A DNA stretch of 64,000 nt, from positions 18,856 to 82,855 of IMG/VR virus record IMGVR_UViG_2721755846_000003; one strand, 5' to 3'. How positions within the stretch are numbered: position 1 is the first letter of the stretch; each line of letters starts with the position of its first letter. Of this stretch, positions 19,198 to 50,633 are shown one piece after another. The notes beneath the pieces are model-generated. The model did not search any database and was not told the DNA's origin. It worked only from the letters and a program-made list of their open reading frames with translations. The position numbers and the translations under genes are program-made. This stretch comes from a virus (taxonomy: Duplodnaviria; Caudoviricetes).

Positions 19198-19266
19198 TAT
19201 GCTGGGGGGCGAAGTCGCTGGTTTAGGGCCGGGCTATCTCCGAACATATGGAGAAGCCGACCCATG
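19198..19266 (+). promoter_or_regulatory. Late leader motif, locus 1 (capsid)
   Basis: TATGCT 19198-19203; GTCGCTGGTTTAGGGCCGGGC 19214-19234; GGCTATCTCC / GGAGAAGCC anti-SD stem. Confidence 0.8.
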
Positions 19267-20928
19267 GACTTCGAAATCCCCGAGGACGTCACCGCTCTCG
19301 ATGACGAGGCCCTGGCCCAGGCCCTGGATGGGGCCCGCGCCGCATTCGCCGCCCTGTCCGGGCAGGACGTCATCGACGGCGATGCCATGACCCGCATGCG
19401 CGCCCTGGCCGCCTGCGTCGAGGACATCCGCACCGAGCAGACCGCCCGTGTGGAGGCCGCCACCCAGGCCGCCGCCGAGATCGAGACCCTGGCCGCCCAG
19501 GTGCGCGGCGAGCAGGCCAACCCGCAGGTGCCCGCCGCCCCGGAGGGCCAGGAGCCCGCCGAGCCCGTCGCCGCCACGGAGCAGCCCCCCGCCGCCCCGG
19601 CCGCCCCCGTGCAGCCGGCCGGGCAGCCGGAGGCCGAGCGCACCGCGTCCGCCGTCGCCACCCGGCCCGCCCTCAACCTGCGCGCCGTCCGCCGCGCCCA
19701 GCCGCGCGTCCTGCCGGAGGCCCCGCCCCCGGGCACCACCCTCACCGCCGCCGTGGACGTCCCCGGCTACACCCCGGGCGCAGACCTCAACTTCGACGAC
19801 GTGGTCCGCGGCATCAACTCCCGCGCCACCGCCCTCAAGACGGCCGGCGGCGGCGTGGGCCAGGTCATCAGCTACCACCACCCCTACGGCAGCGACGTCA
19901 TCGTCACCGACTCCTCGTCGGCGCCCGAGGGCACCACGGTGGCCATGACCGCCTCCAGCCAGTCCCGGCTCCCCCAGCAGGACCTGGTGGCCAGCGGCGG
20001 CTGGTGCGCCCCGTCCGAGACGCTCTACGAACTCACGGACACCAGCTGCCCGGACATGCTGTGGGACGCCCCGGAAATCCAGCTCGCGCGCGGTGGCCTG
20101 CGCTACTACAAGCCGCTCAGCCTGGACGTGTCGGCGATGACCTGGGTGCACACCGAGGCGGACGACATCGCTGGCAACACCAAGCCGTGCTTCCGCATCC
20201 CCTGCCCGGACCCGGTGGAGGTGCGCTGTGACGCCGTCGGTGTCTGCCTGGAGGCGGGCATCCTGACCCAGCGTCATTTCCCGGAGCTCATCGCCTGGTA
20301 CCTGCGCAACGCCATGGTGGCGCACGAGATCCGGCTGCGTCAGGTTCTCTTCGCCAAGGCCCTGGCCACGGCCACGCCAGTGACCGTGCCTCAGTCCATG
20401 GGTGCCCTGTCCGCGGTCTTCGCCGCGGTCGCCCTGCAGAGCGCCGACATGATCGAGCGTCACAGCCTGTGCGACAGCACGGCCCTGGAGGTCGTGTTTC
20501 CGTGGTGGTCGCGGAACCTGTTCCTGGCGGACCTGGCGCGCCGTAACGGCTGCTGCCCGTCCGAGGTGTCCTCCCAGGACGTGCAGGACCTGTTCAGCCC
20601 GCTGGGCGTGCGCATCCAGTGGGCGCGCGGCCTGGCCCCGGCCGTCCCCACCGACATCGGCGCCGCCACCCCGGCCGTCGACTGGCCGGCCACGCTCAAC
20701 TTCCTGATCTACCCGGCCGGCTCTCTGGTCATCGGCCGCGGCGAGGACGTGAACCTGGGCGTGATTCACGACAGTACGAAGTTCTCCACGAACGACTACA
20801 CCGCGCTTTTCGCTGAAGAGTGCGTGGCGCTGGTGGACCGCTCCGTCGACACGCGAGTCGTGACCGTGCCCGTATGCCCCACGGGTGAGACCGGCGGCCA
20901 GACCGTCCTGGCCTGCCCGATCGCCTGA
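19264..20928 (+). CDS. Major capsid protein with N-terminal scaffold-like region
   Basis: Coiled and Pro-Ala-rich N-terminus, then LVASGGWCAPSETLY...ARGGLRY as in actinophage capsids. Confidence 0.85.
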   Translation: MDFEIPEDVTALDDEALAQALDGARAAFAALSGQDVIDGDAMTRMRALAACVEDIRTEQTARVEAATQAAAEIETLAAQVRGEQANPQVPAAPEGQEPAEPVAATEQPPAAPAAPVQPAGQPEAERTASAVATRPALNLRAVRRAQPRVLPEAPPPGTTLTAAVDVPGYTPGADLNFDDVVRGINSRATALKTAGGGVGQVISYHHPYGSDVIVTDSSSAPEGTTVAMTASSQSRLPQQDLVASGGWCAPSETLYELTDTSCPDMLWDAPEIQLARGGLRYYKPLSLDVSAMTWVHTEADDIAGNTKPCFRIPCPDPVEVRCDAVGVCLEAGILTQRHFPELIAWYLRNAMVAHEIRLRQVLFAKALATATPVTVPQSMGALSAVFAAVALQSADMIERHSLCDSTALEVVFPWWSRNLFLADLARRNGCCPSEVSSQDVQDLFSPLGVRIQWARGLAPAVPTDIGAATPAVDWPATLNFLIYPAGSLVIGRGEDVNLGVIHDSTKFSTNDYTALFAEECVALVDRSVDTRVVTVPVCPTGETGGQTVLACPIA

Positions 20929-20949
20929 CGCCCTCCGGCACCCACAGAC

Positions 20950-20994
20950 GCGCGTGCCGGGCCCGTGAACCCTGAGCACAGGCCCGGCACGCGC
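20950..20994 (+). terminator. Stem-loop after capsid gene
   Basis: GCGCGTGCCGGGCCCGTG / CACAGGCCCGGCACGCGC. Confidence 0.65.
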
Positions 20995-21020
20995 CCTCAC
21001 ACCATGACTGGAGGTGCGTG

Positions 21021-21862
21021 ATGCCTGCTGGACTGCGCCAGACCGTGCAGGGCATTTCGGGCACGCCGCTCCCGCACGGCATCCTCGGCGCCTCGTGCTC
21101 GACCGTCATCGACGTCACCGAGGACAGCATCCACGAACTCAACGGCGTGGAGTGGCTGGCCATGGGCTGCTGCCCGGCGAGGGACTGGCCGGACCCGTGC
21201 GAGGACCCCTACCCGGAGCGCCCACCGAAAAGGAGTTCTGCCGCCCCGAGACCGAGCACGCCACGCCCATCACCGTGTACGCCGGCGCGGAGTGCTCCGC
21301 CCCCGGGTTCTCCTATGAGGAGGCCCGCGCCCAGGCGCTCGCCTCCCTCGCCCTGGGGGAGCAGCACGCGGTGGAGGCCGGGTTCATGCGAACCAAGCTC
21401 ACCCAGGACGCCCTGGACATCACCCCGGCAGAGGGCCCGCTGTCCATGGCCCAGGGCGTGGCCGCGCTGGAGGGCTGCCTGGCCGAGAACTACGGCGGCG
21501 TGGGCACCCTGCACGTCCCCGCCGGCGCCGCGGCGCTGCTCGGCTGCTGCAACATCCTGCGGGAGGACCCCGCCACCGGCACCCTGCGCACCCTCGTGGG
21601 CAACTGCGCCGTCATCGGCGCCGGTTACTCCTACCTCAACCAGGGCCCGGGCAACATCCCCGCCGACCCCGGGACGGCATGGCTGTACATCACCGGGCCC
21701 CTGGTCATCCGTCGGGGCCCGATCGACGTGATCCCGGACCGCGGCCGCGCCTCCGCCTCCGTGAACATCCGCAACAACGACCGCCGCGTGCTGGCCGAGC
21801 GCACCTGGCTGGTGGGCACGACCTGCACCATTTGCGCGGTGAACGTGAGGGTCTGCGAGTGA
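21021..21862 (+). pseudogene. Putative minor capsid/structural gene split by a -1 frameshift near 21205-21230
   Basis: 5' part coding in the frame of ORF 21018 (GGAGG SD), 3' part in the frame of ORF 21014 ending in a GTGA overlap with the next gene. Confidence 0.65.
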
Positions 21863-22512
21863 GTCAGGACATGATCCGAGTCAAGCCCGAGCGGTCCCGG
21901 CTGGTGGCGTTCGCGCGGTGGGCGACCGCCCAGACGCCCAAGGTCGGCACCATCGGCCTGGGGGAGTTCGGCGTCCCTGCCGGCCTGTTCGTCCACACCC
22001 CCGAGGACGTGCTGATCGGCGCCCTGGTCGACGGGCACCGGTACGTGTCCCCGGCGGAGGACGCCGCCCGTGAGGGGCGGCTCCTCAGCTGTGGTCTCTG
22101 CTACGTGGAGAACGGCGAGGAGGTACACCCGCACCCCGAGTGCACAGCGCACCCCGCTGGGACACAGGAGCTGCTGGGCGTCGCCGACCCGGCCGCGCTC
22201 ACCCCGCCCGTACCGATGGGCAACCCGGAGGCGGACGCCGCGGCCATGGTCGCCGCCACCAGCCCCGAGACGATCCAGGCCGCCATGGACGCCGTCCTGA
22301 TCGCCACGGACCTGGCTGCCAGCAACGCCGCCGCCGCTGGAGGGGACGGCAGCGACCCGAGCGACCCGGGCCCGGACTACGCCCCGCTGGAGGACGCCCC
22401 AGCCGGCGACGAGGACGACGGCGACGGGTGGCCGTGCGACCGGTGCCCGCGGTCCTTCACCACCGAGCGCGGCCGGGACTCCCACCGCCGCCAGGTCCAC
22501 AGGGAGGACTGA
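21859..22512 (+). CDS. Hypothetical protein with C-terminal C2H2 zinc finger
   Basis: CDRCPRSFTTERGRDSHRRQVH; internal CGLC...HPHPEC. Confidence 0.7.
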   Translation: MSQDMIRVKPERSRLVAFARWATAQTPKVGTIGLGEFGVPAGLFVHTPEDVLIGALVDGHRYVSPAEDAAREGRLLSCGLCYVENGEEVHPHPECTAHPAGTQELLGVADPAALTPPVPMGNPEADAAAMVAATSPETIQAAMDAVLIATDLAASNAAAAGGDGSDPSDPGPDYAPLEDAPAGDEDDGDGWPCDRCPRSFTTERGRDSHRRQVHRED

Positions 22513-22521
22513 CGGATGCGC

Positions 22522-23148
22522 CTACTCCACCCAGGCCCGGCGCTTGCGGTTCACGATGCGACTGATGCGCGGCTGGCTGACTCCGAACTGGGCCGCGATG
22601 ACCTTTTGGGGCGTTCCCCCCGCTGCGAGCGTTCGGATCACGGGCACGTCGGCGTCCTCGATCTTCAGGTTGGGCTTACTGCGGCTGGCCACGGCTCTGG
22701 TCGGCTTGCGCCCCTTGGCCATGCTGTCGTGCAGGTTGGCCGCCGCGTCTCCCTCCCACAGGCAACCAGAGTTCACGCACGCCGGGTTGTCACACCGGTG
22801 GCACGCGAACATGTCGACGCCCAGCGGCCTGCCCAACTTGTCCTCCAGGACGAGGCGGGTAACGCGGGTCATCCTCCGTTGGATCTTCACGGTGGGGTAG
22901 CCGTCCGCGTCGGCCGCGAACCGGCCGTCGTTGATCCTGCACCCCTCGGCGTTAGGGGGGATGGCGAGCGCTGCGGCGAGCACCTCGGCCCGTGCCCGCT
23001 TGGGGACGGACCGGCGCCCGTTCGGGTCCAGTCCGCCGTGACGGTCCTGCCACGTCGCGCACGGGTGGCACCAGCCGCGTCGCGCAATGCGACGGCTGCA
23101 CTTCACACCGTCCGCGAATACCACAGGGCAGGTACTAGCGTCGGTCAC
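22522..23148 (-). CDS. HNH homing endonuclease-like protein, antisense insertion
   Basis: GYPTV, ACHRCDNPACVN..LWEG..AAN..D, HTH IAAQFGVSQPRISRI; usual second His appears replaced (SGCL). Confidence 0.82.
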   Translation of the reverse strand: MTDASTCPVVFADGVKCSRRIARRGWCHPCATWQDRHGGLDPNGRRSVPKRARAEVLAAALAIPPNAEGCRINDGRFAADADGYPTVKIQRRMTRVTRLVLEDKLGRPLGVDMFACHRCDNPACVNSGCLWEGDAAANLHDSMAKGRKPTRAVASRSKPNLKIEDADVPVIRTLAAGGTPQKVIAAQFGVSQPRISRIVNRKRRAWVE

Positions 23149-23205
23149 GTCGACTCCTCATCAGTCGGCCATGCCCCCGGGCGGTGCCAGCCGTCGCGGG
23201 GGTCT
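23146..23205 (-). promoter_or_regulatory. HNH leader, copy 3
   Basis: Minus strand AGACCCCCGCGACGG-CTGGCA-CCGCCCGGGGGCATGGCCGACT-GATGAGG-AGTCGAC-GTG; CATAAT upstream. Confidence 0.72.
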
Positions 23206-23252
23206 CTGTATGCCCATTATGAGTGCTTTTGCCGCCAAGGGGGGTGCCTGTA

Positions 23253-25841
23253 GTGGCAGTTCAGCCTTTGCCGTGTGACGACGGCGGGACCGGCACACCA
23301 GGCGCCTGCTCCTGCTCGCCGTCCATCGCCTCCGCCCCGCTGTGTCGGGCGGACGGCACCACCGTGCTCCTGGTCCTGCGCTCCGGCTGCGTGGCGTGCG
23401 GCCAGGCGGCCACGGATCCGGCCGTCGTCGGCTGGATCGACCCGCTCACCGGGGTGCTCACCCCGGGCGCGGCCCCGCCGGACGCCGGCCCCTGCTCCAT
23501 GGGCTGCTCCTGCTCGCCGTCCATCGCCACCACACCCCTGTGCCGGGCAGACGGCACCACCGTGCTCCTGGTGGTGCGCAACGACTGCGCGGACTGCGAC
23601 ACCCCCGCCCCCGACCCCACGGTGGTGGGCTGGCTGGACCCGCTCACCGGCGTGTTCACCCCGGGCGCTGCGCCGGCCGACGCCGGGCCGTGTGACCCGG
23701 GCTGTGTGGACACCGTCTGTCGGCAGCTCTGCGACGACACCGATGGCGACGGCCAAGCGGACGCCACCTATTCGGAGCTGTGGTGCATCAAGGCGGACGG
23801 CTCCGCCTCCCTCGTCCTCACCTACCAGGACGACCCCTCACAGCCGTACACGCCCGTGGCACCGGTCGACTGCACGTATGGCTGCCCCGAGACCGAGACC
23901 GTCACCCTGTGCGATGCCTCCGGTCCGTTCCTGCGCCGCTTCACCTGGCTCGCCGGGGTGGGCACGTACGAGGACGTCGCCCTGGACGGCCAGACACCGT
24001 ACGTCGTCAACGGCACCGTTGGGGTGTGCGCCGGCGACGGCGGCACCCCGGGCACGCCGTGCGCCGAGCAGACCACGCCGGCCGCCACGCTCGGCCTGTG
24101 CCTGGCGGACGGCACACCGATCGCGGTCATCCTCACCCGCGACTGCGACGGCACGGTCACCCAGGACGGATGGCTCAACCTCACCACCGGCACCTACAGC
24201 ACTGGCGCGCCCCCGGCCGGGGCCGCCGCGTGTGGGGACTCCCGCGCCTTCGAGCTGGCCGGGCTGCTGTGCGACGTCGACCCGGCAACCGGCGACGTCC
24301 TCGGCCTGGTCCTCGTCGAGTACGAGTACAACCCGGACGGCAGCCTCGCCCACGTGCGGCTCGTGGACCCCGGCACCGGCACCACGTACACCCTGCAAGG
24401 GGAGCTGCGCTACTGCCCGGCCGGGACCGCCGCGGCGGCCGCCGACCTGGACCTCACCGTGCTGTGCGACGTCCAGGCAGACGGCACCGCCGTGCCGTTC
24501 GTGCGGGACTACCGGCGCGACCCCACCACCGGCCAGATCAACGGGCACACGGACTACGGCCTGGACGGCACGCCGTACACCCCGACCGGCACCGCTGGCG
24601 TCTGCTCCCCGCAGGCGGAGCCGTGCCGCAACGCCAGCACGCTCCTGCTGTGCGACCTGCCCACCGACGGGACACCGGCCCCAACCGTCACGGACACCCC
24701 CGGCGGGCCGTACTACCCGTACACCACAGGGGTGGCCACCCCGGGGGCGCAAGCCCTATGGGACGGCGGCCCGCTGAACCTCCCGGCCGCGGCAGGCCCG
24801 CAGCCAGGCACGGGGGGCACCGTACGGACCGCTGCGGCGGTCATCCAGGCCCCGCGGCCCGCCTGTGACGCCGGTACCGCGCACGTCACGGTGCAGGTCG
24901 ACGTCACCCAGCTTGGCCCCGACGCCGGATGCCGAGCCACCGGGTTCCTCGGCCTATACAACGGCCCCGGCGACGCCAACCGGGTAGCTCTCGCACTCGC
25001 CCCACCCGACACCCCCGTCGGGTGGGCCGGAACGCTGACCGCCGAGGCCGACGTCCCGGCCGCCGACCTCGCCGCCGGGAACATCGTCGTCGTGGTCGCG
25101 TTCGACGCCTACGACGACAGCGGCGCCACCTGCCCACCCCCGCGCCACACGGCCTGGCAGCTGTCCCAGTTCGACGCCACGGTGGTCTACGACCAGACCG
25201 GATGCGCGCCGCAGTTCCTCCGCAGCATCACCACCGACTGCGAGACCGGCGCTGTCACCGCCGTCACCGACACCACGCTGGACGGGCAGCCGTACACGGT
25301 CACCGGGCAGCCCGGCCAGTGCACAGCAGCCGGGGGCGGTTCCTGCTGCCCCGAGCAGCCGTGCCCGGCGCAGACCGTCATCGAGGCATGCCGCTGCGAC
25401 GACACCGACGCGGACGGCCTGCCCGACGTCGGCTATGTGGAGCTGCTCGCCGTCGACTGCTCCGGGGCCGTCACCAGCCTGGGCACCTACACGGACGGGC
25501 TCACCGGCCCGTACACGCCCGTCTCGCCGGTGGACTGCAACGCCCTGGGCGACGAGGAGGGCGCAGAGCCAACTTTCGGCGCGCAGGCCCACCGGGTGGA
25601 GCTCGCCGGCGCTGCCTCCTGGAGCGCCGCGGCGTGGCCGACCCTCCAGTCAGTGACCGCCGTCGCCCACGGCGGCACCGGCACTATCACCACCGCTGAC
25701 GGCCCCTCAACCCTGCACCAGGGCGAGGCCGCCACCTGGAGCATCGCGCGGGACGAGGATGCCCGCCTCACCGGACCGCTCACCATCGCGGCGAGCACCG
25801 GCACCGTGACCGTCACCTTCACCACCGGAGTGCAACTGTGA
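23253..25841 (+). CDS. Large Cys-rich repeat protein, putative virion decoration
   Basis: Two tandem ~66 aa CSCSPSIA..LCRADGT repeats, LCDV modules, CDDTDGDG motifs. Confidence 0.78.
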   Translation: MAVQPLPCDDGGTGTPGACSCSPSIASAPLCRADGTTVLLVLRSGCVACGQAATDPAVVGWIDPLTGVLTPGAAPPDAGPCSMGCSCSPSIATTPLCRADGTTVLLVVRNDCADCDTPAPDPTVVGWLDPLTGVFTPGAAPADAGPCDPGCVDTVCRQLCDDTDGDGQADATYSELWCIKADGSASLVLTYQDDPSQPYTPVAPVDCTYGCPETETVTLCDASGPFLRRFTWLAGVGTYEDVALDGQTPYVVNGTVGVCAGDGGTPGTPCAEQTTPAATLGLCLADGTPIAVILTRDCDGTVTQDGWLNLTTGTYSTGAPPAGAAACGDSRAFELAGLLCDVDPATGDVLGLVLVEYEYNPDGSLAHVRLVDPGTGTTYTLQGELRYCPAGTAAAAADLDLTVLCDVQADGTAVPFVRDYRRDPTTGQINGHTDYGLDGTPYTPTGTAGVCSPQAEPCRNASTLLLCDLPTDGTPAPTVTDTPGGPYYPYTTGVATPGAQALWDGGPLNLPAAAGPQPGTGGTVRTAAAVIQAPRPACDAGTAHVTVQVDVTQLGPDAGCRATGFLGLYNGPGDANRVALALAPPDTPVGWAGTLTAEADVPAADLAAGNIVVVVAFDAYDDSGATCPPPRHTAWQLSQFDATVVYDQTGCAPQFLRSITTDCETGAVTAVTDTTLDGQPYTVTGQPGQCTAAGGGSCCPEQPCPAQTVIEACRCDDTDADGLPDVGYVELLAVDCSGAVTSLGTYTDGLTGPYTPVSPVDCNALGDEEGAEPTFGAQAHRVELAGAASWSAAAWPTLQSVTAVAHGGTGTITTADGPSTLHQGEAATWSIARDEDARLTGPLTIAASTGTVTVTFTTGVQL

Positions 25842-29263: not shown

Positions 29264-29304
29264 TGGCCGCCCCCTTTCCCCAGACCGCCGACCAGGAGGC
29301 GCTG

Positions 29305-32603: not shown

Positions 32604-32675
32604 TAGACTCACCTGGAACGCCGCTGGTTTAGGGCCGGGCGCCTCCTCCACCCCTTCACGAGGAGCACCCCCATG
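32604..32675 (+). promoter_or_regulatory. Late leader motif, locus 2
   Basis: TAGACT 32604-32609; GCCGCTGGTTTAGGGCCGGGC 32620-32640; CTCCTC / GAGGAG anti-SD. Confidence 0.8.
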
Positions 32676-34820: not shown

Positions 34821-34905
34821 TAAACTGAACTCGCCGCTGGCTTCGGGCCGGGCAACATGTCGCTGGTTGAGGGCCGGGCTTCCTGCACGTAGGAGGCACG
34901 GCATG
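34821..34905 (+). promoter_or_regulatory. Late leader motif, locus 3 (two tandem copies; major tail)
   Basis: TAAACT 34821-34826; copies 34833-34853 and 34859-34879; GCCGGGCTTCCT / AGGAGGCACGGC anti-SD. Confidence 0.8.
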
Positions 34906-39101: not shown

Positions 39102-39168
39102 TACCCTGATCTGCACGCCGACTGGTTGAGGGCCGGGCGAGGCGCGGGAGACGAGGACACACCCCGTG
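39102..39168 (+). promoter_or_regulatory. Late leader motif, locus 4 (tail chaperone)
   Basis: TACCCT 39102-39107; GCCGACTGGTTGAGGGCCGGGC 39117-39138; no clear anti-SD stem here. Confidence 0.75.
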
Positions 39169-39696: not shown

Positions 39697-39944
39697 ACGT
39701 CCACGCGTGGCGGCTGCGCACCATGCTCGCCGCCGCCGAGGCGTCCATGGATGCAGCCGCGCAGGATGACGGGGAGCGCGCCCGCAACCGGGCCAAGTTG
39801 TACGCCCCGCCCACGAGCGCGCAGGGCCCTCGCCGTCCAGGAGCACGGCCCGCCGGCCGGGGGATGAGCCTGGACCAGGCGCAGGCGCTCATGGCCGCCG
39901 TAGCCACCGAAGACGCCCAGGTCACCGGTGGCCGTAACGGATAG
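39612..39944 (+). CDS. Tail assembly chaperone frameshift extension (gpT-like)
   Basis: Overlapping -1 frame PYWVVFRLCESIAAGW... entered at C-CCT-AC (39612-39617). Confidence 0.62.
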   Translation, partial: PYWVVFRLCESIAAGWEGWSGALALEGVDVHAWRLRTMLAAAEASMDAAAQDDGERARNRAKLYAPPTSAQGPRRPGARPAGRGMSLDQAQALMAAVATEDAQVTGGRNG

Positions 39945-40033
39945 TCTGGGACCAGGCCGGGCCGCGCGCCCTGGCCTCTCGCCGACTGGTTAAGGGCCGG
40001 GCAACCACTCACGAATCGTGGGGTTGCCCGGTG
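39942..40033 (+). promoter_or_regulatory. Late leader motif, locus 5 (tape measure)
   Basis: TAGTCT 39942-39947; GCCGACTGGTTAAGGGCCGGGC 39981-40002; CGGGCAACC / GGTTGCCCG stem ends at GTG 40031. Confidence 0.78.
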
Positions 40034-43000
40034 GCTGGCGAGGAAGACGACTACGGCTCAGCCCGTATCACCATCGACCTGGACGACACGGCGGCGGTCG
40101 CCGACGCCCAGACGCTCGGGCAGCGGATCCAGAACGCCCTGGACCGCGCGACCCGCAACATCGGGCAGCAGATCCGCCGCAACATCCAGCGCGGGCTCAC
40201 TACCGCGATCTCCGTTCGGGTGGAGCCGGACGTCTCCCGGTTCGAGGCGCAGGTCCAGCGGGCACTGCGCGGCCTGGCCGCCGCCGTCGACCTGACCCCG
40301 GACGCGGCCCGCCTCCAGGCACGGCTCCAGCGCACGTTGCGCGGCCTGTCCGCCTCCGTCGACATCTCCCCGGACCTGGGCCGGTTCCAGGCCCGGTTGA
40401 CGGCCGGCCTGCGCGGCCTGGGCAGCGTCTCGGTCCCGGTGGCCCCGGACGTTGCCCGCTTCCAGGCCCAGGTCCAGCGGGCGCTGCGCCGGCTGTCGGT
40501 GTCCGTGGCGCTGGAGCCGGACACGGCCCGGTTCCAGGCTCAGGTCAACCGCGCGCTGCGCGGGATGACCGCCCAGGTGCGGGTGGAGCCGGACGCGGGC
40601 CGGTTCGCTGCCCAACTCCGCCGGGACCTGCGGGCGCTCGGCGCGGTCACCGTGCAGGCCCAGGCGGACGCGGCCCGCTTCCGCGCCCAACTGGAGCGCG
40701 CGCTGCGCAGGCTGCCGCCCATCACCATCCGCGTCGACCCGGACCTGACCCGGCTCAACGCCGCGCTGCGCACCTACCACGCGCCGCCCGTACGCATCCC
40801 GATCGACGTCGACCGGGACCAGCTCACGCGCACCCTGTCCGGGCTGGCCGGGCTGGCCGGCCGGGTGGGCGGGGTGCTCGTCAAGGCCCTCAAGTTCGGG
40901 GCCGTCGCCATCGCCGCGGCGGGCGCGGCGGCCGGGGTCGCCAAGTTCGTGGCCGCGCTGGCCCCGGCGGCCGGCCTGCTCGCCGCCGTCCCGGCCGGGG
41001 TGCTCGGGTTCCAGGCAGCCCTGGGCGCCCTCAAGCTCGCGCTGTCCGGCGTCTCGGACGCCTTCAAGTCCGCACTTACGGACGACTCCAAGAAGTTCGA
41101 GAAGTCCCTGAAGGGCCTGTCACCCAAGGCGCAGGCGGCGGCGCGCGAGGTGCGCGCCCTGAAGCCTGCGTTCGAGGACCTGCGCAACAGCGTCCAGGAC
41201 GCCTTTTTCACCAAGATCGAGGGGCAGATCACCTCCACGGCCAAGGCCTTGGCCGGACCCCTCAAGACCGGGCTGACCGGCATCTCCACCGCCTGGGGAG
41301 CAGCCGCGCGCGGCGCCCTCGGGTACGTGCAGGGCTCCAAGGGCGTAGCCAACGTCAAGTCCATCCTGGGCGGCGCGCAGGCGGCCACGGAGGGCCTTTC
41401 CCAGACCACCAACCGGCTCACCGCCGGCCTGCTCCAGGTGGCGGCCGTCGTCTCGGACCGGTTCGGGGCGGAACTGTCCGGGGGCATCGCCAACCTGGGC
41501 CAGCGGATCGGGGACTTCCTCCAGCGGATCGCGTCCGGCGGGCAGGCCGTGGCCTGGGTGGACGGAGCCCTCAACACCCTGGCCCGTCTCGGCGACATCG
41601 CCGGCAACGTCAAGGACATCTTCAGCGGCCTGTTCCAGGCCAGCGACGGCGCCGGCGCGGGCGTCCTCAACAACCTCCAGACCGTCACCAAGGCCGTCTC
41701 TGACCTGGTCAACTCCGCCCAGGGGCAGACCGCCCTGGGCAACATCTTCACCCAGGTCGGCCAGGTCGCACAGCAGCTCGGCCCGATCATCTCGGCCGTC
41801 CTGTCCAACGTCGGCAAGATCGCGCCCGCCCTGGGGCCCATCCTCACCGGCCTGGGCCCGGTCATCGTTCAGCTGGTCAACCAGCTCGGCAGCGCCGTGC
41901 AGGGGGCGCTGCCCCAGCTCTCGGTGGTCTTCGCGGACCTCGGTGCCGCCGTCGTCTCGCTCGCCCCTGCCCTGCCGCCCCTGGCGGAGGCGGCGGCAGC
42001 ACTGGCCCGTTCCGCGGCTGACCTGCTCGTTCCGCTGGCCCCCATCGTCGCGCTGCTCGCCCAGCTGGTGGGCCCCGTCGTCAGTGTGGCCGCGCCGCTC
42101 ATCGTGGCCGGTACGGCCGCGTTCGTCCTGGTGAAGGCTTTCAAGGCGGCGGTGGAGGTCATCCGCCTGATCCAAGGCGCCTGGCTGGCCCTCAACGTTG
42201 CGTTTGCCGCCTCGCCCATCGGCGCCATCATCGTGGGCGTCATCGCGCTGGTGGCCGCGATCTACCTGCTCTACCAGCGGTTCGCGATCGTGCGCACGGT
42301 GGTCGATGCCGTGGGCCGCGCCCTGCGGGACGGCTTCCTGGCCGCCGTCTCGTTCGTCAAGTCCGCCGCGTCCGCCATCGCCGACTTCTTCGTCGGCGCG
42401 TTCGAGTCGGCCAAGTCGGCTGTCTCCACCGGGATTGACGCCGTGGTCGGGTTCTTCACCGGCCTGCCCGGCAAGATCGTTTCCGGGCTGTCGGCGCTGG
42501 GCTCCACCCTGGCCCAGTTCTTCGTTAGCGCGTTCGAGACCGTCAAGGCCGGGGTGCTCGCCGGTGTCCAGGCCGTGGTCGGCTTCTTCGTCGCCCTGCC
42601 CGGGCGGATCGTGGCCGGTCTGCAAGCACTGCCCGGGCTGCTGCTGGGCGCCTTCACCAGCGCCGTCGCGTATTTGATCATCGGTCTGCTGACCGTGGTC
42701 GCCGGCATCGTGTTCCTGTTCACGGAGCTGCCGGTGCGGATCTACAACGCGCTGGTGTCCCTGGGCCAGTTCCTGCTCACGGCCTTTGTCACCGGGTTCA
42801 CCGTGGCCACGGCCACGGTGTCCGGCTGGATCGACGCCACGGCCGCGTTCTTCCAGGCGCTGCCAGGGCGGATCTACTCCGCGCTAGCGGCGCTGGGCTC
42901 CTTCCTGCTCAACGCCTTCGTGTCCGGGTTCAACTCGGTGACCTCCACCGTCTCGGGGTGGATCTCCTCGACGGTGTCGTTCTTCCAGGCCCTGCCAGGG

Positions 43001-44848: not shown

Positions 44849-46167
44849 TGGCGGCTGAGTGGTACATGGAGTACGGCGGCGTGGAGGTGGTGAACCACTC
44901 ACGCCTTGACCAGTATCTGCGCACGGTGGGCTCGCCGCTGGACTCCCACGGGGCATGTGGCTGCCCGACATTCACGGCGGAGGTGCTGGACGAGCTGCCC
45001 TACACGACCCCGGACGACGCGGCCAACCCGGCGCCCTGGTACGACCCGGACGTCCCGGAGTCCGTGGAGTTCGCCGGCGTGATGGTGCTCGACGTCGCCG
45101 GCCTGGACGACTTCCCGGTCCAGCGCACCGTCACCGGCGGGATCGCGGGCGGCGGCGCAATCGGCCCGGCCCGGGCGCTGCCGCGCACTATCACCGTGAC
45201 CGCCATCCTGCTCGGGTCCACCTGCTGCGGCGTGCAGTACGGGCTGCAATGGCTGGGCCAGGCGCTCCAAGGCTGTAGTGGCGGAGGGTGTGACGGGGAC
45301 TGCCTGGTCGTGTACGACTGCTGTCCGGGGGAGGGCCTGACGCCGGCGGAGTTCAACCAGCGGCACCGGCGGACGCTGCGCCGGGTGGCTCTCGTGGAGG
45401 GACCTCGAGTAACGGCCCGGGCCGGGACCGGCTGCACCACCGGCAGTTGCCAGTCCGGGGCGGACATCCTCACCGTGGAGTGGGTGATGACCGCCGCCGT
45501 GCCGTGGCTGTGGACGGACCTCATGCCCGTGCTGGAGGTCACGCCGCCCATGGACCTGGACGGCCACTGCGTGGACTGGTGCCTGCACCCGGCCGGGGAC
45601 GCCGGTTGCCCGGGCGGCTGCAAGCACGCCGCGTGTGTGGACCCCACGGCCGCGTGTGCGGACCCGCGCTGCTCGCCGGTGGCGCCGCCCCTGCCCGGCG
45701 CCCCGCTGGCCACCTGCTTCTGTGTGCCGCTGGCCACGGAGCGTGCCTGCTACGACATGGACCTCACCGACCGGCCGAACTGGTCGACCGACCTGCCGGT
45801 GGTCACCGTACGGTCCGGGTCCTCGGAGCTGCGCAACCTGACCATTGCCATCTACGAGAGCGGCGAGGCGGGCATGACGTGCGGCCAGGTGGCGGACTTC
45901 AAGCGGTGTACGCCCGTCAACTACTGGCACGTTTCGTATGTGCCTCCGGGCGGGGCGGTGACGCTGGACGGCCAGACGGGCCGGGCCACGGTGGAGTGCG
46001 GCGGGACGTGTGAGTCCAGCCCGGACGTGTACGGGATGGACGGGATGCCGCCCACCTACAACCCGCTGGAGTGCGCAACCTTCTGTGTTTGCTTGGAAAC
46101 GGACATCGAGGCGCCGCCAGCCCTGGACGCCCTGGTGACGTTGAACTTGTCCGGGCGGGGGCGGTAA
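44848..46167 (+). CDS. Minor tail protein (distal-tail-like), Cys-rich
   Basis: Directly after tape measure; YGGVEVVNHSR, APWYDPDVPES.EFAG. Confidence 0.78.
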   Translation: MAAEWYMEYGGVEVVNHSRLDQYLRTVGSPLDSHGACGCPTFTAEVLDELPYTTPDDAANPAPWYDPDVPESVEFAGVMVLDVAGLDDFPVQRTVTGGIAGGGAIGPARALPRTITVTAILLGSTCCGVQYGLQWLGQALQGCSGGGCDGDCLVVYDCCPGEGLTPAEFNQRHRRTLRRVALVEGPRVTARAGTGCTTGSCQSGADILTVEWVMTAAVPWLWTDLMPVLEVTPPMDLDGHCVDWCLHPAGDAGCPGGCKHAACVDPTAACADPRCSPVAPPLPGAPLATCFCVPLATERACYDMDLTDRPNWSTDLPVVTVRSGSSELRNLTIAIYESGEAGMTCGQVADFKRCTPVNYWHVSYVPPGGAVTLDGQTGRATVECGGTCESSPDVYGMDGMPPTYNPLECATFCVCLETDIEAPPALDALVTLNLSGRGR

Positions 46168-47207
46168 TGGCGGTCGCTGGCTGCGGCACTCATCAGGCCA
46201 TGGTGCTGGACAGGAGCGGCGCCACCGTGGCCGTCGCCAACGTCCTGACGGAGATCGAATGGAACAGGACCTTGGACGCGGTCAGTTCGGCCCGGGCGGT
46301 CATCAATCCGGACGGGGACTGCTGCAACAGGCTCGGCCGCTTGAGCACTTGGGCCCACCGCCTCGTCATCTTCCGTGACCAGCGGTACGTGTGGGACGGC
46401 CCTATCACCGGCATCTCCTGGTCGCTGGGCCAGGTGGAGCTGTCCGCCCAGGACGTCCTGGCCTGGCTGGACCACCGCGTCATCCACGCCGACAAGACGT
46501 TCACCAACGCGGACCTGGCGGACGTCGCTCAGTGGCTGATCGAGGACGGCTACGCCCCGGACGACCCCGGCCACACGGTCCAGGTGGTGGGCAAGGCAGG
46601 CATCACCGGCTCCCGTGCCTACTCCCAGAACATCGGCCAGACCGGCGACCATCTGGCCCAGTTGGCGGAGGCCGGGATCGACTACACGGCGATCGGTTCC
46701 AAGATCCTGCTGCTCCCGGAGGACCACCTGGCCAGCGTGGGCCGGCTGTCGGATGCGGACCTGCCGGAGGGACTGGACGTCGCCGAGGACGGCGCCGCGC
46801 TGGTGTCCCGGTGGGTCGTGGCCGGCAGCGAGGAGAGCGGCGCGATCGGGGAGTACGGCGGGATTGATCCGTACTACGGCCTGCACGAGCGGTATGTGGA
46901 GATGAGCGAGATCACCGACAGCACTTCAGCGACGGAGGCCGCCCGGGCGCGGCGCCGGGCGAGCCTGCCAGTGCCGGTGGTCGTCGACACCCAGCAGGTC
47001 ACCATCAGCCCGCTGGCCGCGATCGACGTCCCCAGCCTGGTGCCTGGCTGGTGCCTGGACGTCACCAGCGCGGGCACCTGCCGGACCGTACGGCAGCGAC
47101 TGAAGATCACCGGGGTGAAGGTGACCGAGACGGGCGGGAGCGGCGACAACCCGGGGTCGGAGAGCGTCCAGGTGCAGGTGGCGGCGACCGGAGCGGAGAC
47201 ACCCTGA
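46167..47207 (+). CDS. Minor tail protein (hub-like)
   Basis: WNRTLDAVSSA, HRLVIFRD..VWDGP, GIDYT, LVPG. Confidence 0.78.
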   Translation: MAVAGCGTHQAMVLDRSGATVAVANVLTEIEWNRTLDAVSSARAVINPDGDCCNRLGRLSTWAHRLVIFRDQRYVWDGPITGISWSLGQVELSAQDVLAWLDHRVIHADKTFTNADLADVAQWLIEDGYAPDDPGHTVQVVGKAGITGSRAYSQNIGQTGDHLAQLAEAGIDYTAIGSKILLLPEDHLASVGRLSDADLPEGLDVAEDGAALVSRWVVAGSEESGAIGEYGGIDPYYGLHERYVEMSEITDSTSATEAARARRRASLPVPVVVDTQQVTISPLAAIDVPSLVPGWCLDVTSAGTCRTVRQRLKITGVKVTETGGSGDNPGSESVQVQVAATGAETP

Positions 47208-47656
47208 TGGCGATGCGAGGATCACCAGCCCGCCGGATCGTGGGCAACCCCCTCGGCTCGGTGCTGGCCAACCTGGACCAGCGCACCCGGGTGGCCGCCC
47301 GCCGCCGCACCACCGGCAGCGCCCCGAGTGAGCAGGACCCGCCGCCCGCCGAGGCGCCCGTGCGCGTGGCTGCGTGGCCCGCTGCCGCCGTGCTCGTGAC
47401 CGGTGAGGACGGGCGGGCCCAGTGGGCGTTTCCTGCCCCGTACGCGGCTGCTCCGGCCGTCTCGGCGATCGCCGTTGACCCCGCCCCGGAGGAGGACGAC
47501 CGCACGGTGCTCGTCGCCCTCGAGGAGGTCACCACCTGGTGCGTGGCCGTCCGCGTGTGGCGCACAAGGGGACGGCGCGGCACCGGGGTGGCGGAGCCGG
47601 CCGGGGCCGGGGTACGCGTGCACGTGACCGCCCTGGGCGTCGGGCCGGTGTACTAG
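47207..47656 (+). CDS. Minor tail-associated protein
   Basis: TGATG overlap; TGEDGRAQWAFPAPYAAAPAV...VRVHVTA. Confidence 0.62.
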   Translation: MAMRGSPARRIVGNPLGSVLANLDQRTRVAARRRTTGSAPSEQDPPPAEAPVRVAAWPAAAVLVTGEDGRAQWAFPAPYAAAPAVSAIAVDPAPEEDDRTVLVALEEVTTWCVAVRVWRTRGRRGTGVAEPAGAGVRVHVTALGVGPVY

Positions 47657-47783
47657 GAGCGTGTCTCAGACACCAGCTGCCGGGGTGACCGTCTACATGC
47701 ACGCGGTGGCTCCCTGACGTGCATCCCACGGGGCTACAGTGCCGCATGCACTGGGGAGTGCAGCACAATAGTGGGGGTGGCGC

Positions 47784-48212
47784 GTGAAGACGCGAATGGT
47801 GATCACAGCGGTCGTTCTCAGCATGGCCTTGGCCGGATGTTCAAGCGCCGGGGATGATGCTTTGGCCGAAGTCCGGAAGGCATGTGCCGACATGGGCTTC
47901 AAGCACGGCAAGGCCCCGGACAGCGCCAGCACAGACGGCAGCACCTTGACCGCCGACGACTGGGCGAAGAAGGCGGACGCCTACAACGGCATTGCCAACC
48001 GTCTTGCACATGCAGCAGGTCAAGACCGTCGTTGGGACCGATTGTCGAACGCCGTCACCGATTATCAAGCTGCCTCAGTCCAGGCAGCCATAGCTGCGGA
48101 CGGAGGAAAATCCTTCCAGGAGCGGACAGCGGCAGCACAGGAGGTCGCCAGCTACGACGTTCCTTCGATTATTCGCACGACCGCCCAGGAATGCCGTAAG
48201 GCTCAGGCGTGA
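47784..48212 (+). CDS. Lipoprotein (moron)
   Basis: Lipobox LAGC after a hydrophobic signal; lower GC3. Confidence 0.78.
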   Translation: MKTRMVITAVVLSMALAGCSSAGDDALAEVRKACADMGFKHGKAPDSASTDGSTLTADDWAKKADAYNGIANRLAHAAGQDRRWDRLSNAVTDYQAASVQAAIAADGGKSFQERTAAAQEVASYDVPSIIRTTAQECRKAQA

Positions 48213-48279
48213 CGTGATCGTCGGGCTGTGGCGCCGCTGGACCTTCTCCCAGCTACGAGGACCTCGCGGCGCTACTAGG

Positions 48280-48346
48280 TACCCTGCCGATCAGTCGCTG
48301 GTTTAGGGCCGGACACGCACCGCACGGCAGGGGTGAGTTCGGCATG
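48280..48346 (+). promoter_or_regulatory. Late leader motif, locus 6
   Basis: TACCCT 48280-48285; GTCGCTGGTTTAGGGCCGGAC 48294-48314; GCCGGAC..CACC / GGTG.GTTCGGC anti-SD. Confidence 0.8.
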
Positions 48347-49066
48347 GCGTCAGTTTGCGTGGATGACCAGTACTTCGAGGTGGGCGACGACGGGCGGCTG
48401 ACGCTCATCCCCGGGCAGCAAGGCCTGCGAAACATCCTGTACTTCAAGACCCCCGGGGCCGACACCTTCAAGAAGGCTGACTATCCATGGCTCGCGCGGG
48501 TGTTCGTCATGGTGCAGGCCGGTGGGGGAGGCGCGGCTGGCGCTCGCGCGAACGCCAACCAGTTGGTGGCGCAGCCGGGGGGCTCGGGTGGCGGGTACGC
48601 GGAGCGGCTGATCGCGGCGTCCGCGCTCGGCGCCACGGAGGCCATCGTCGTCGGCGACGCCGGCATCGCGGGCACGCCGACCGTGGACGGCGGCCCGGGC
48701 GGTAACTCCTCCTTCGGTGGCCTGTGCACCGCGCTGGGCGGCAACCCGGGCCAGGCCGTCATGCCGTCCGGGGCGACGCCCATGTGCCTGTCGGGTACCT
48801 CCGGGCCCCTCGCCGGGGTGGGTGATATGGCGCAGGGCGGGGGCCCCGGCGGCGGAGCCCTGCGGATCAGCGGCGGTGAGGGTCAGAGCGGGGAGGGCGG
48901 GGAGTCCCGGCTGGGCCACGGCGGATGGCAGCGCTCCTCCTCGGGCGGCGGTGGCGCGGGCCGCGGCTACGGCGGCGGCGCGGCCGGCGCCCTGGCCAGG
49001 GACGGCGACAGCGTGAACGGCACCCCTGGCGGCGCGGGCATCGTCATCGTGTACCTGTACGGCTGA
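48344..49066 (+). CDS. Glycine-rich tail protein
   Basis: VQAGGGG, GGSGGGYAE, GGNSSFG, GYGGG, GGAGIVIV. Confidence 0.8.
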   Translation: MASVCVDDQYFEVGDDGRLTLIPGQQGLRNILYFKTPGADTFKKADYPWLARVFVMVQAGGGGAAGARANANQLVAQPGGSGGGYAERLIAASALGATEAIVVGDAGIAGTPTVDGGPGGNSSFGGLCTALGGNPGQAVMPSGATPMCLSGTSGPLAGVGDMAQGGGPGGGALRISGGEGQSGEGGESRLGHGGWQRSSSGGGGAGRGYGGGAAGALARDGDSVNGTPGGAGIVIVYLYG

Positions 49067-49070
49067 CCCC

Positions 49071-49210
49071 GTGTCCTGGACGCGTCCGGACACCCGTGTC
49101 CGGGCAGTGTCCGTGCAGGTCAGCCGTGTCCGGTGCTCATGTCCCGGATGGTGTCTGCGCGTTGTCCGGACATCGGCCCGGACATGTCCGCGATGGTGTC
49201 CGGGCAGGCC
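49071..49210 (-). repeat. GGACA/TGTCC iteron cluster with CTGACCTGC core, copy B (intergenic)
   Basis: About 10 (T)GTCC/GGACA units; reverse complement matches 17822..17960. Confidence 0.72.
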
Positions 49211-49215
49211 GCCGA

Positions 49216-49284
49216 TAGACTCGACGGTGCGCCGCTGGTTTAGGTCCGGGCCACGATCAACCCCCAAGGACGGTGGGATCAGTG
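49216..49284 (+). promoter_or_regulatory. Late leader motif, locus 7
   Basis: TAGACT 49216-49221; GCCGCTGGTTTAGGTCCGGGC 49231-49251; GCCACGATC / GATCAGTGGC stem covers GTG 49282. Confidence 0.78.
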
Positions 49285-50118
49285 GCGAGGTGCGGATGCG
49301 CCGGAGGCGCGTGCAACTGCGCGGTGGAGTCCGGGACCAACGTCAGCGTCAGCGGCTCCGGATCGGCGGCCAACCCGTACGTCATCAGCGCGGCGACTCC
49401 ATGCGCGGACGTGAGGGCGTGTCTGTCCGCCGGGCCCGGCATCAACCTGGACCAGGCCACCGGCGCAATTTCCGCGGACCTGTCCGGGCAGGCAGGCAAC
49501 AACGTGACGATCGGGCCGGACGGCGGCCTGTACGTGCCCACAGCCGGCGGCGCGGTGCTCACGGGCTGCGGCCTGGTCGGCAACGGCACCGCGAGCGCCC
49601 CCGTCAAGGCAAAGACCGGGACGTGGCCGTACCCGTGCAGCCTCGACACGTTCGGCGGAGTGGTGGCGTGCGACAGCAACGGCGTCCTGCGGGGCGAGCC
49701 GCGCGGCAGGCTCTCGTTCGCGTCCTACTTCGACAACCGGGACTATCCCGACGTGCCGGTCCCGGCCGCCCAGAACACGGTGCTGGACAACTTCACGGTC
49801 AACGTGACCAACCCCGACACGTGCCGCACCGCCATGGTGCTGACGGAGCGGGAGGTGGACGTGTATGTCGTGCTGCCGGCCGGGGCCGCCGCGGGCACCG
49901 GGCACAGCAATGACGAGATGTACTACATGCGCAACAGCGGCACGAGCACCATCGTTGGCACGCACGTCCAGACCACCAAGTTCCTGGCGGAGCCGGCCCT
50001 GCTCGCCCCCGGCGCGACGATGCCGGTGACGCTGACCGCGACCGGTGGCCGCGGCGCGGGCGGCGCCTACTACTACGGCATCAACTTTGTCCTCCGGACC
50101 ATGATCATCAGCCTGTGA
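49282..50118 (+). CDS. Short tail-fibre-like protein, paralog of 32673
   Basis: CNC..V.GSGSAANPYVISA, CADVRAC, GCGL.GNGT shared with 32673; different C-terminus. Confidence 0.75.
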   Translation: MARCGCAGGACNCAVESGTNVSVSGSGSAANPYVISAATPCADVRACLSAGPGINLDQATGAISADLSGQAGNNVTIGPDGGLYVPTAGGAVLTGCGLVGNGTASAPVKAKTGTWPYPCSLDTFGGVVACDSNGVLRGEPRGRLSFASYFDNRDYPDVPVPAAQNTVLDNFTVNVTNPDTCRTAMVLTEREVDVYVVLPAGAAAGTGHSNDEMYYMRNSGTSTIVGTHVQTTKFLAEPALLAPGATMPVTLTATGGRGAGGAYYYGINFVLRTMIISL

Positions 50119-50129
50119 GGAGTGCGACT

Positions 50130-50519
50130 ATGTCCCTGGGACTTCCCGGTCTGCCCGGCTGGCCGTGGCCGTGGCCTGACGGCGACGACCCGACGACGCC
50201 GCCCGAGCCGACGACGCATTACGTCCTGTACCCGGACGGCCACATCGGCCAGATCACCGCCACCGGCGCGGATCCCGTACTCACCGAGGGCGCCAAGCTG
50301 CTGACGCAAGAGCAGTACGAGGAGACGCGCGCCCAGATGCTGGAGGCGCATGAGGCGCGCCTGACGGAGCTCCAGGCCGGGGAGGAAGCGGCACGCCTCC
50401 AGCAGTACAAGGACCTGCGGGCGGTGGGCCTGCCGGAGGCGACCGCGCGGTCCTTGTCCGGCTACACCGGCCAGGCCGCGGCCGGCGACGCCCAGGGCGC
50501 CGCGCAGACGGCCGGTTAG
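50130..50519 (+). CDS. Fibre chaperone-like hypothetical protein
   Basis: GAGGAG SD; follows fibre gene; LLTQEQY...GLPEATARSLSGY. Confidence 0.68.
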   Translation: MSLGLPGLPGWPWPWPDGDDPTTPPEPTTHYVLYPDGHIGQITATGADPVLTEGAKLLTQEQYEETRAQMLEAHEARLTELQAGEEAARLQQYKDLRAVGLPEATARSLSGYTGQAAAGDAQGAAQTAG

Positions 50520-50633
50520 ACTCCTAAGCAGTCGCTGGTTCAGGGCCGGACGAGGCGCCCCGCTACGGGAGTGATCCGCCTTGTCCCACGACCACCGCAC
50601 CAGCAACGTGCCCGGCCGGGACGGCTGCTGATG
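50517..50633 (+). promoter_or_regulatory. Late leader motif, locus 8 (endolysin), with candidate uORF
   Basis: TAGACT 50517-50522; GTCGCTGGTTCAGGGCCGGAC 50531-50551; GGACGAGGCG / CGCCTTGTCC stem. Confidence 0.8.

Follow-up and report, generated by a model that had tools for sequence, protein, structure and literature searches.

The provirus and its late genes

The 64,000-nt stretch analysed here (hereafter the window) comprises bases 18856-82855 of an 82.9-kb provirus record of IMG/VR, IMGVR_UViG_2721755846_000003, and has a G+C content of 71%. Based on Pfam matches and the annotation of Streptomyces phage TurkishDelight, its gene order is terminase, portal, MuF-protease fusion, capsid, major tail, tail chaperone, tape measure, minor tail and fibre genes, and amidase. 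The virion genes are nearest to those of TurkishDelight, with 73.6% nucleotide identity across the capsid region, and their next relatives are the Woodruffvirus phages, such as TP1604. Eight leaders between the capsid and lysis genes contain a 21-nt box with the consensus GCCGCTGGTTNNGGGCCGGGC, which is the subject of this work. Covariation in the box hairpin, together with an excess of leader stability that depends on the 3' arm of the box, supports two mutually exclusive folds that share this arm, one of which hides the ribosome-binding site (RBS).

Distribution of the box

A 19-mer taken from the first copy has nine matches in the window with three mismatches or fewer, all on the + strand, where 0.06 were expected and none of 100 shuffles reached nine. 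The motif originally noticed is therefore real. The nine copies make up eight loci, having a tandem pair at the major tail gene. In the whole 82.9-kb provirus the same 19-mer gave nine forward and no reverse matches, and a reversed-pattern control gave none. With a covariance model built from 149 boxes, eight window copies scored 27.8 to 38.3 bits. The box is restricted to the genes from capsid to lysis, because the next best score anywhere in the provirus was only 17.7 bits; no copy lies at the terminase, portal or MuF genes or anywhere in the non-structural part. TurkishDelight has nine boxes in the forward orientation and none in reverse, located before the capsid, major tail (two copies), chaperone, tape measure (two copies), minor tail, gp32 and tailspike genes, with no copies outside the late region.

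An exact-pattern scan of IMG/VR listed at least 120 stretches, and the family counts given below were drawn from these loci, TurkishDelight and the window. Among the listed loci there were 226 box matches with one mismatch or none, of which 193 had a G+C3-rich open reading frame (ORF) starting downstream, 184 of these being unique. The remaining 33 matches without a downstream ORF, mostly in unrelated and often low-G+C contexts, were taken as chance. Among the matches listed, 151 of the 184 unique copies are followed by the start codon at a distance of 20-39 nt. Those with a start at 15-60 nt amounted to 159 copies from at least 55 viral contigs, and precede tape measure (26), chaperone (22), major tail (18) and capsid (9) genes, as well as several Cys-rich or glycine-rich tail-fibre-like genes; the TurkishDelight capsid leader clustered outside the capsid group of nine. 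The alignment lengthens the motif by four bases to 21 nt, these being G (86%), C (89%), C/T and G (87%), followed by CTGGTTNNGGGCCGGGC.

Among 50,697 GenBank phage records, the canonical box was found only in TurkishDelight among the matches listed. TP1604 and Mischief19 have a diverged box, GCTGCTGGCGKTAGGCCGRG, with a different loop, preceded by TATCAT or TACACT, in which the canonical U5.G11 pair is C-G. In TP1604 it lies at 13701-13721 and 16899-16919 of the analysed stretch, before the major capsid and major tail genes only, and one copy was located at about 970-990 of the Mischief19 stretch. A scan of genome contigs gave mostly single chance matches in unrelated taxa, and the multi-copy contigs among the matches listed were all Streptomyces; these were excluded from the counts. 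A known RNA family was rejected, as Rfam release 15 gave no matches in the window at gathering thresholds and nothing on the leaders between 32500 and 40100 at E-values up to 5. A search of the main texts of freely available papers found nothing describing the box motif and no mention of TurkishDelight. The words 'motif' and 'promoter' are absent from PMC11302927, and the subject of PMC10732093 is UUA bypassing in terminase genes.

Covariation in the box hairpin

The structure tested was the one proposed by RNAalifold from the major tail group, applied to 149 aligned boxes. The predicted hairpin has an outer helix of G-C, Y-R and Y-R pairs, a two-base bulge, an inner helix of U.G, G-C, G-C, U.G and U.G pairs, and an N-N-G loop. 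In the alignment, 96.8% of the cells are paired, against 23-63% in slid controls, and 17 cells have double changes, against 2.4 +/- 1.4 in shuffles, none of 500 reaching 17. Among the 159 unique boxes, pair -3/16 is C-G in 141, U-A in 12, U.G in five, G.G in one and never C.A, whereas pair -2/15 is C-G in 103, U.G in 30, U-A in six, G.G in 20 and never C.A. These 20 G.G cases, along with 19 C.C cases at pair -4/17, come from boxes whose 5' strand has one extra base (GCCGA or GCCGT); in them the GCC arm is simply displaced and still kept. Because U.G is tolerated (35 times in the hairpin) while C.A is absent, and because three of the five inner pairs are G.U, the pairing points to + strand RNA rather than to duplex DNA or the opposite strand.

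The boxes ending in GGAC begin with GUCG or GUUG in all 12 cases, and those ending in GAGC have U at -2 in all six. The variants are found in several contigs upstream of various genes, and beside canonical boxes within one genome. Compensation for GGAC had been ascribed to its downstream partners; it is real and lies chiefly inside the box, the downstream partner being U in 7 of 12 minimum-energy folds.

A competing fold that hides the ribosome-binding site

The folding of 133 non-redundant leaders was compared with 25 dinucleotide shuffles each of the spacer plus start. The minimum free energy (MFE) of the free leaders was -25.46 kcal/mol for natural and -22.47 kcal/mol for shuffled sequences, and with the box hairpin enforced it was -15.78 and -15.92 kcal/mol, respectively. 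The excess stability is lost on enforcing the box hairpin, and therefore the whole of it lies in structure that requires the arm. The mean unpaired probability from the Shine-Dalgarno (SD) sequence to the start codon (accessibility) of free leaders was 0.29 in natural and 0.39 in shuffled sequences, and the switching cost (ddG) was 9.7 and 6.5 kcal/mol, respectively (Wilcoxon p < 1e-5 for the free MFE, accessibility and switching cost). In a run with 100 shuffles, the mean z was -1.2, with p <= 0.05 in 30% of 139 leaders. The stability excess is strong in the tape measure (-32.3 vs -23.7 kcal/mol for the free fold), capsid, major tail and two fibre groups, and weak in two others.

The tape measure leaders preserve the competing helix itself: CCGGGCAACC pairs with GGUUGCCCGG, extending to the first base of GUG, in 24 orthologous leaders, with 97.5% of the cells paired (17-57% in slid controls) and a swap from A-U to C-G in five, which none of 500 shuffles reached. 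The covariation expected of homologs is thus found both in the box hairpin (17 double changes vs 2.4) and in this helix. Using the curated starts of TurkishDelight, accessibility was 0.29 for its seven box genes and 0.47 for 104 other + strand genes (Mann-Whitney p 0.005). The folds originally predicted to exclude each other through the 3' arm are supported by the compensatory changes in one and by the excess stability of the other, which disappears when the box hairpin is enforced.

The arm has 5.95 expected base pairs with the RBS region in natural leaders and 4.17 in shuffled leaders, in a context of 71% G+C and 22-33 nt from box to start. The arm alone binds its own RBS window at -10.64 kcal/mol and the reversed arm at -9.58, a gain of about 1 kcal/mol. 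The minimum-energy fold joins the arm to the RBS region in 128 of 144 leaders, a count discarded as evidence, as the short spacer leaves almost no other outcome. Stems at single loci carry little weight, because shuffled leaders likewise pair the arm with the RBS region.

The eight leaders of the window

All boxes and hexamers described here are on the + strand, and each locus was compared with 300 dinucleotide shuffles. Seven loci had been proposed to hide the SD or start in a stem. All seven segment pairs are present and complementary, with duplex energies of -8.2 to -17.9 kcal/mol; the stems dominate the ensemble at five loci (probability 0.91 at the capsid and 32673, and 0.99 at the major tail, tape measure and 48344 leaders) and are out-competed at 49282 (0.17) and lysis (0.02). 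Six of the seven stems use the box, with 2-7 box nucleotides each (in order, capsid 3, 32673 0, major tail 6, tape measure 5, 48344 7, 49282 2 and lysis 4), the stem at 32673 being a local SD hairpin. Against shuffled controls, the predicted leader folding holds as a family excess over the 133 leaders, and singly on MFE only for the capsid and tape measure. Accessibility is low relative to shuffles at four of the eight loci (capsid, p 0.010; 32673, p 0.007; tape measure, p 0.000; lysis, p 0.023), and enforcing the box hairpin raises it at seven of eight, the chaperone leader being unchanged.

The capsid leader has the hexamer TATGCT at 19198-19203 (family motif by Gibbs sampling, described below), box 1 (GTCGCTGGTTTAGGGCCGGGC, 32.2 bits) at 19214-19234, the 3' strand of the RBS-hiding stem at 19250-19258 and the ATG start at 19264; its MFE is -25.1 kcal/mol vs -16.3 in shuffles (p 0.010). 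At the second locus, TAGACT (32604-32609) precedes box 2 (32620-32640, 38.3 bits) in the leader of a Cys-rich gene starting at ATG 32673, where the SD hairpin CTCCTC/GAGGAG has its 3' strand at 32660-32665; accessibility is 0.15 vs 0.41 in shuffles, and the MFE is not significant. At the major tail locus, TAAACT (34821-34826) adjoins box 3a (34833-34853), a degenerate upstream tandem copy (GCCGCTGGCTTCGGGCCGGGC) matched by the 19-mer, and box 3b (34859-34879, 31.1 bits) is followed by the stem 3' strand at 34891-34902 and ATG 34903, with an MFE p of 0.25. The major tail gene of TurkishDelight also has a tandem pair.

The tail assembly chaperone leader has TACCCT at 39102-39107 and box 4 at 39117-39138 (27.8 bits), which is 22 nt long, one base longer than the 21-nt form, with the prefix GCCGA, before GTG 39166. 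It has no RBS-hiding stem, and its accessibility is 0.57 in both states; the exception originally noted for this locus is conserved across the chaperone leaders of the family. In the tape measure leader, TAGTCT (39942-39947) lies 33 nt before the 22-nt box 5 (39981-40002, 28.2 bits), which is 37 nt from the 19-mer match, and a G+C-rich hairpin occupies the gap; the stem 3' strand is at 40022-40030 and the start is GTG 40031. Its MFE is -33.8 kcal/mol vs -23.4 in shuffles (p 0.000) and its accessibility 0.02. The intervening hairpin (39948-39980) contains GGCCGGGC, the sequence of the box arm, and may be a decayed tandem box, judging from the full second box at the same place in TurkishDelight.

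Upstream of a glycine-rich-domain gene (ATG 48344), TACCCT (48280-48285) precedes box 6 (48294-48314, 32.9 bits), a GTCG...GGAC variant with the U-A double change; the stem 3' strand is at 48337-48343, all seven base pairs involve box nucleotides, and the MFE p is 0.147. Box 7 (49231-49251, 34.2 bits), a GGTCC variant preceded by TAGACT (49216-49221), is in the leader of a Cys-rich gene starting at GTG 49282. There the claimed 3' strand is at 49277-49286, and the minimum-energy fold pairs the 5' half of the box with the start region.

Box 8 (50531-50551, 32.2 bits), another GTCG...GGAC variant, belongs to the lysis leader and is preceded by TAGACT (50517-50522), whose TAG is the stop codon of the upstream ORF 50115-50519. 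The claimed 3' strand is at 50577-50586; another fold wins, and accessibility is 0.16 vs 0.36 in shuffles. The start said to be buried here was taken for that of the endolysin. It is the TTG 50581 of a 16-codon ORF (50581-50631), and the Amidase_2 frame begins at ATG 50631, which overlaps the TGA of the small ORF (TGATG). The lysis leader seems to control this small upstream ORF, coupled to the lysis gene, because the start at the family's usual distance from the box (29 nt) is TTG 50581. A mechanical ORF call opens the amidase at GTG 50571, abutting the SD.

The upstream hexamer

The original description of the leaders left out a -10-like element, GnTAnnCT, now found 6-10 nt before the box. 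A TAnnnT hexamer was found within 45 nt upstream in 141 of 159 copies, ending 10-14 nt before CTGG in 108 of 159. Gibbs sampling without a prior pattern returned g-G-c-T(.86)-A(.87)-n-n-C(.87)-T(.90); in 118 of 157 copies this motif stops 6-10 nt short of the box, and position 5 of the hexamer is C in 87-93%. No conserved column was found upstream of the hexamer that could correspond to a sigma-70 -35 element, which would be expected at 16-18 nt, and a generic consensus scan for promoters and terminators found no site at any box. The single RNA sequencing run compared contained, as contigs, 0.05 of the sampled sequence words. The form GnTAnnCT resembles the actinobacterial extended -10, except that the conserved C at position 5 is outside that consensus and leaves room for a processing site. 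Each locus is likely its own transcription unit, given the -10-like hexamer just upstream, and a transcript start 6-8 nt past the hexamer would place the box at the extreme 5' end. At the capsid locus, the hexamer sits in the loop of a GCCCCC/GGGGGC hairpin (19183-19205).

The loop and the search for a factor

Loop position 7 varies freely within genomes. At position 8, most genomes have U, and the window and five other contigs have A. Pairs of boxes from one contig are identical at position 8 in a proportion of 0.962, vs 0.652 when permuted (maximum 0.770 in 2000 permutations; 55 contigs). Apart from these variable positions, the loop and wobble positions are invariant across the 55 contigs. 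A uniform position 8 fits one trans-acting reader per genome, and would also be compatible with shared descent of the A-type phages or conversion between copies. The putative reader would be encoded by the phage rather than the host, because the Woodruffviruses share the host genus yet carry another loop. As a candidate factor, a 127-aa protein encoded between the portal and MuF genes (14147-14530) is only a lead: it has a sub-threshold match to a Lar-type zinc ribbon (E 0.0017), a homologue in TurkishDelight and no match in TP1604.

Two host-directed explanations of the box were tried and rejected. Pairing with Streptomyces 16S rRNA, as an rRNA-binding enhancer, reached -31.5 kcal/mol vs -29.7 +/- 2.2 for shuffled boxes (p 0.175; p 0.295 for the 3' 50 nt). 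The last 25 nt of the Streptomyces 16S rRNA read GCGGCUGGAU just before the anti-SD, which is identical to the first ten bases of the box at eight of ten positions in the same sense, a chance-level resemblance within 1.5 kb. Mimicry of a host tRNA anticodon arm, an idea prompted by a loop whose first position is free and whose second and third are fixed, gave five exact box-core matches in a 10.6-Mb Streptomyces genome, none of them in a tRNA gene. One-mismatch matches there numbered 95 forward and 93 reverse, vs 98 and 100 for the control, with tRNA overlap judged on the exact matches only.

Other genes of the provirus

Genes for a 6-pyruvoyl-tetrahydropterin synthase (QueD-like), a radical-SAM enzyme and GTP cyclohydrolase I are adjacent at 3576-5432 of the window and at 16496-18130 of the provirus, upstream of the window, together with a GP88-domain protein (E 7e-52). 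We take this set to suggest a phage-made 7-deazaguanine derivative, perhaps for DNA modification. Two terminase-like ORFs (60953-62326 and 6790-8457) match the TurkishDelight terminase by tblastn with 72.9% and 76.9% identity, respectively, and may reflect a second phage remnant or tandem prophages within the record. Large Cys-rich proteins made of repeated modules (repeat families D4, D6, D10 and D12-D14) are encoded in a block between 23223 and 32279; two have 872 and 1141 aa, and others are smaller. The block has no TurkishDelight match by tblastn. Cys-rich N-termini (MARCGCGG, MANCCG) also open several box-bearing genes outside this block. Additionally, the tape measure gene contains seven tandem 72-75-nt repeats (40206-40714), 63-75% identical to the reference copy.

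Proposed mechanism and alternatives

It is in our judgement an evenly balanced question whether the late genes share a cassette with a two-state leader, in which hexamer, box, spacer and start follow one another and the RBS is hidden in one of two exclusive folds. In this cassette, a putative promoter hexamer of -10 type (GnTAnnCT), lacking a -35, would be followed 6-10 nt downstream by the box, probably at or beside the 5' end of the transcript, then by a gene-specific spacer of 22-33 nt with the SD, and by the start codon. The 3' arm (CCGGGC) can pair with the spacer or start region instead of closing the box hairpin, in a fold predicted to be about 10 kcal/mol more stable that lowers access to the SD and start. 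The weaker box hairpin would have to form at some stage, because compensatory changes maintain it, either on the transcript as it emerges or with the help of a trans-acting factor that recognizes its loop, and the RBS would then be more open. The factor, probably phage-encoded, the silence of late mRNAs before it binds and the ON direction of the switch when the box hairpin is held are assumptions of the model. More tentatively, and with doubt, the box may be the operator of a phage-wide RNA regulon, in which one co-evolving reader, specific for loop position 8, would flip at least eight late leaders from RBS-hidden to RBS-open and so release virion and lysis proteins together.

Several observations weigh against these proposals. 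The isolated box hairpin is weak (-3.2 to -5.3 kcal/mol), and enforcing it in the window costs 1.9-17.1 kcal/mol (12.6, 2.9, 10.1, 1.9, 17.1, 9.2, 12.2 and 12.0 for the loci in order). The MFE beats shuffles in only two of the eight window leaders, capsid and tape measure. Even under enforcement of the hairpin, natural leaders across the family expose the RBS slightly less than shuffles do (0.45 vs 0.50; Wilcoxon p < 1e-5), because local SD hairpins persist. The advantage of cognate over non-cognate 5' and 3' strands in pairing is only modest (-19.45 vs -16.78 kcal/mol; cognate strands in the top 5% in 27 of 133), because most spacers share a pyrimidine-rich stretch opposite a generic SD. The 18 non-redundant chaperone leaders keep the box without occlusion (-21.2 kcal/mol for the free fold vs -22.4 in shuffles), and the variant box of TP1604 precedes only the capsid and major tail genes, a pattern that a booster of expression would explain as well as a lock would. 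Among 40 provirus proteins, Pfam recognized no RNA-binding and no Com-like family, and tblastn of 68 provirus ORFs against TP1604 found only structural and lysis genes in common. The chaperone leaders retain the box without occlusion, and therefore the box has a role beyond RBS hiding, as the adjacency of a promoter-like hexamer and the two-gene pattern of TP1604 also indicate.

Such a role would be the primary one if the hairpin acted on transcription or on the life of the mRNA, by protecting the 5' end from decay or by loading an antitermination or processing factor, and the pairing of arm and RBS were a side effect of a G+C-rich arm near the start. This is unlikely on our reading, even though the box follows the hexamer at 6-10 nt in 118 of 157 copies, the chaperone leaders are unoccluded, TP1604 has the box only before the genes of its two most abundant virion proteins, and shuffled spacers also pair with the arm (4.17 expected base pairs). 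The distance to the start codon is tighter than that to the hexamer: the tape measure hexamer is 33-37 nt away and the box is still 28 nt from the start, and among tandem copies it is the downstream one that keeps the start distance. Moreover, the stability excess depends on the arm, and access to the RBS is below that of the 104 other genes of TurkishDelight. The two-state leader might also work without any factor, the nascent box hairpin giving ribosomes a short window before refolding hides the RBS, so that translation would occur only while the mRNA is young or coupled to transcription. The hairpin is indeed transcribed first and is the weaker fold, and the Pfam scans and the tblastn comparison with TP1604 found no conserved regulator gene. 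This version is nevertheless improbable: a genome-specific loop position 8 and loop and wobble positions invariant across 55 contigs are needless for folding alone, and limiting the translation of capsid and tail proteins would seem contrary to the quantity needed.

Two further explanations concern the DNA and the origin of the 5' end. If the hexamer, as an A+U-rich island containing a conserved C, were the place where an endoribonuclease cuts a long late transcript, the box would be the 5' end of a processed mRNA. The C at position 5, outside the -10 consensus, the absent -35 and the capsid hexamer in a hairpin loop are in favour; T, A and T at positions 1, 2 and 6 and the G two bases upstream fit the extended -10. 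We regard processing as highly improbable; it concerns the origin of the 5' end only and would be compatible with the two-state leader. The box would be a DNA site, with the RNA folds irrelevant, if it served as a repressor or activator operator or as the core of a phage-specific promoter, as might be suggested by a repeated, oriented, asymmetric site just past a -10-like element with position 8 uniform per genome, an arrangement that resembles the oriented operator sets of other actinobacteriophages. Against this, the coupled changes preserve Watson-Crick pairing and allow U.G and never C.A, an asymmetry meaningless in duplex DNA; three of five inner pairs are G.U, and GCCG...GGGC and GUCG...GGAC forms coexist in one genome. 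The 5' strand also tolerates a one-base insertion, and the distance to the start codon is fixed. A DNA site is hardly to be expected on these grounds.

Late-gene control in Streptomyces phages is almost unexplored, and the box marks capsid, tail, fibre and lysis leaders across dozens of phages and prophages. If the two-state leader is real, it would be a rare case of one post-transcriptional signal coordinating a whole virion module. The regulon, if it exists, would rest on a cis-regulatory RNA of a new class, so far located in at least 55 viral contigs of Streptomyces and a single cultured phage, with Woodruffvirus carrying a diverged form. A pull-down with the 21-nt hairpin offers a direct route to the putative factor, and the box could supply a compact, portable control part for Streptomyces genetics. 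For annotation, the box settles where the late genes start and brings to light the small upstream ORF before the lysis gene.

Comparison with known systems

In phage Mu, the zinc-finger activator Com controls one target gene, mom, through an upstream protein-binding hairpin that competes with a start-hiding stem. The late leaders are similar in that an upstream hairpin competes with a start-hiding stem, in that holding the first is predicted to open the second, and in serving a late phage function. The start region is held in an inhibitory stem (accessibility 0.29 vs 0.39 in shuffles and vs 0.47 in other TurkishDelight genes), except in chaperone leaders, and the exclusive hairpin is supported by covariation and by the excess stability that vanishes under enforcement. 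They differ from Com/mom in having eight leaders with nine box copies in the provirus (nine copies in TurkishDelight) instead of a single target, and no sequence likeness. As for the small zinc-finger activator, no Com-like family was found in 40 proteins, and the only match is the sub-threshold zinc ribbon of 14147-14530. The parallel is one of mechanism alone.

The start-associated sequences of cluster K mycobacteriophages abut the start codon, contain the SD and have an unsettled function. Like the box, they are short, oriented, conserved and repeated upstream of a subset of actinobacteriophage starts; the box, in contrast, ends 20-39 nt before the start, lacks the SD, has RNA pairing supported by covariation and occurs at late genes only. 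In cluster A mycobacteriophages, the stoperators bind a repressor as duplex DNA and are scattered through both early and late regions. They share with the box an asymmetric sequence oriented with transcription, many sites per genome and location in short intergenic gaps. In both the provirus and TurkishDelight the boxes are absent outside the late genes, and their variation obeys RNA pairing rules, with compensatory changes that allow U.G and lack C.A, unlike a site recognized in duplex DNA. Nut- or put-like antitermination hairpins act on nascent RNA just downstream of a promoter, independently of any start codon. The placement of the box after the promoter-like hexamer fits them; its spacing from the start codon (20-39 nt in 151 of 184 copies) is unexpected for this family.

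The coat-protein operator hairpins of RNA phages and the RegA operators of T4 are repressor sites at the RBS, and RegA controls many mRNAs. The likeness is in a small irregular hairpin that presents bulged and loop bases to a phage protein, and in one protein acting on many mRNAs, as for RegA, a protein that is putative in the present case. The difference is that the hairpin described here excludes the RBS, and its formation is predicted to open it. We see the element as a leader that sequesters the RBS and has a competing operator hairpin; it is set apart by its recurrence throughout a virion module and its conservation in many Streptomyces phages and prophages.

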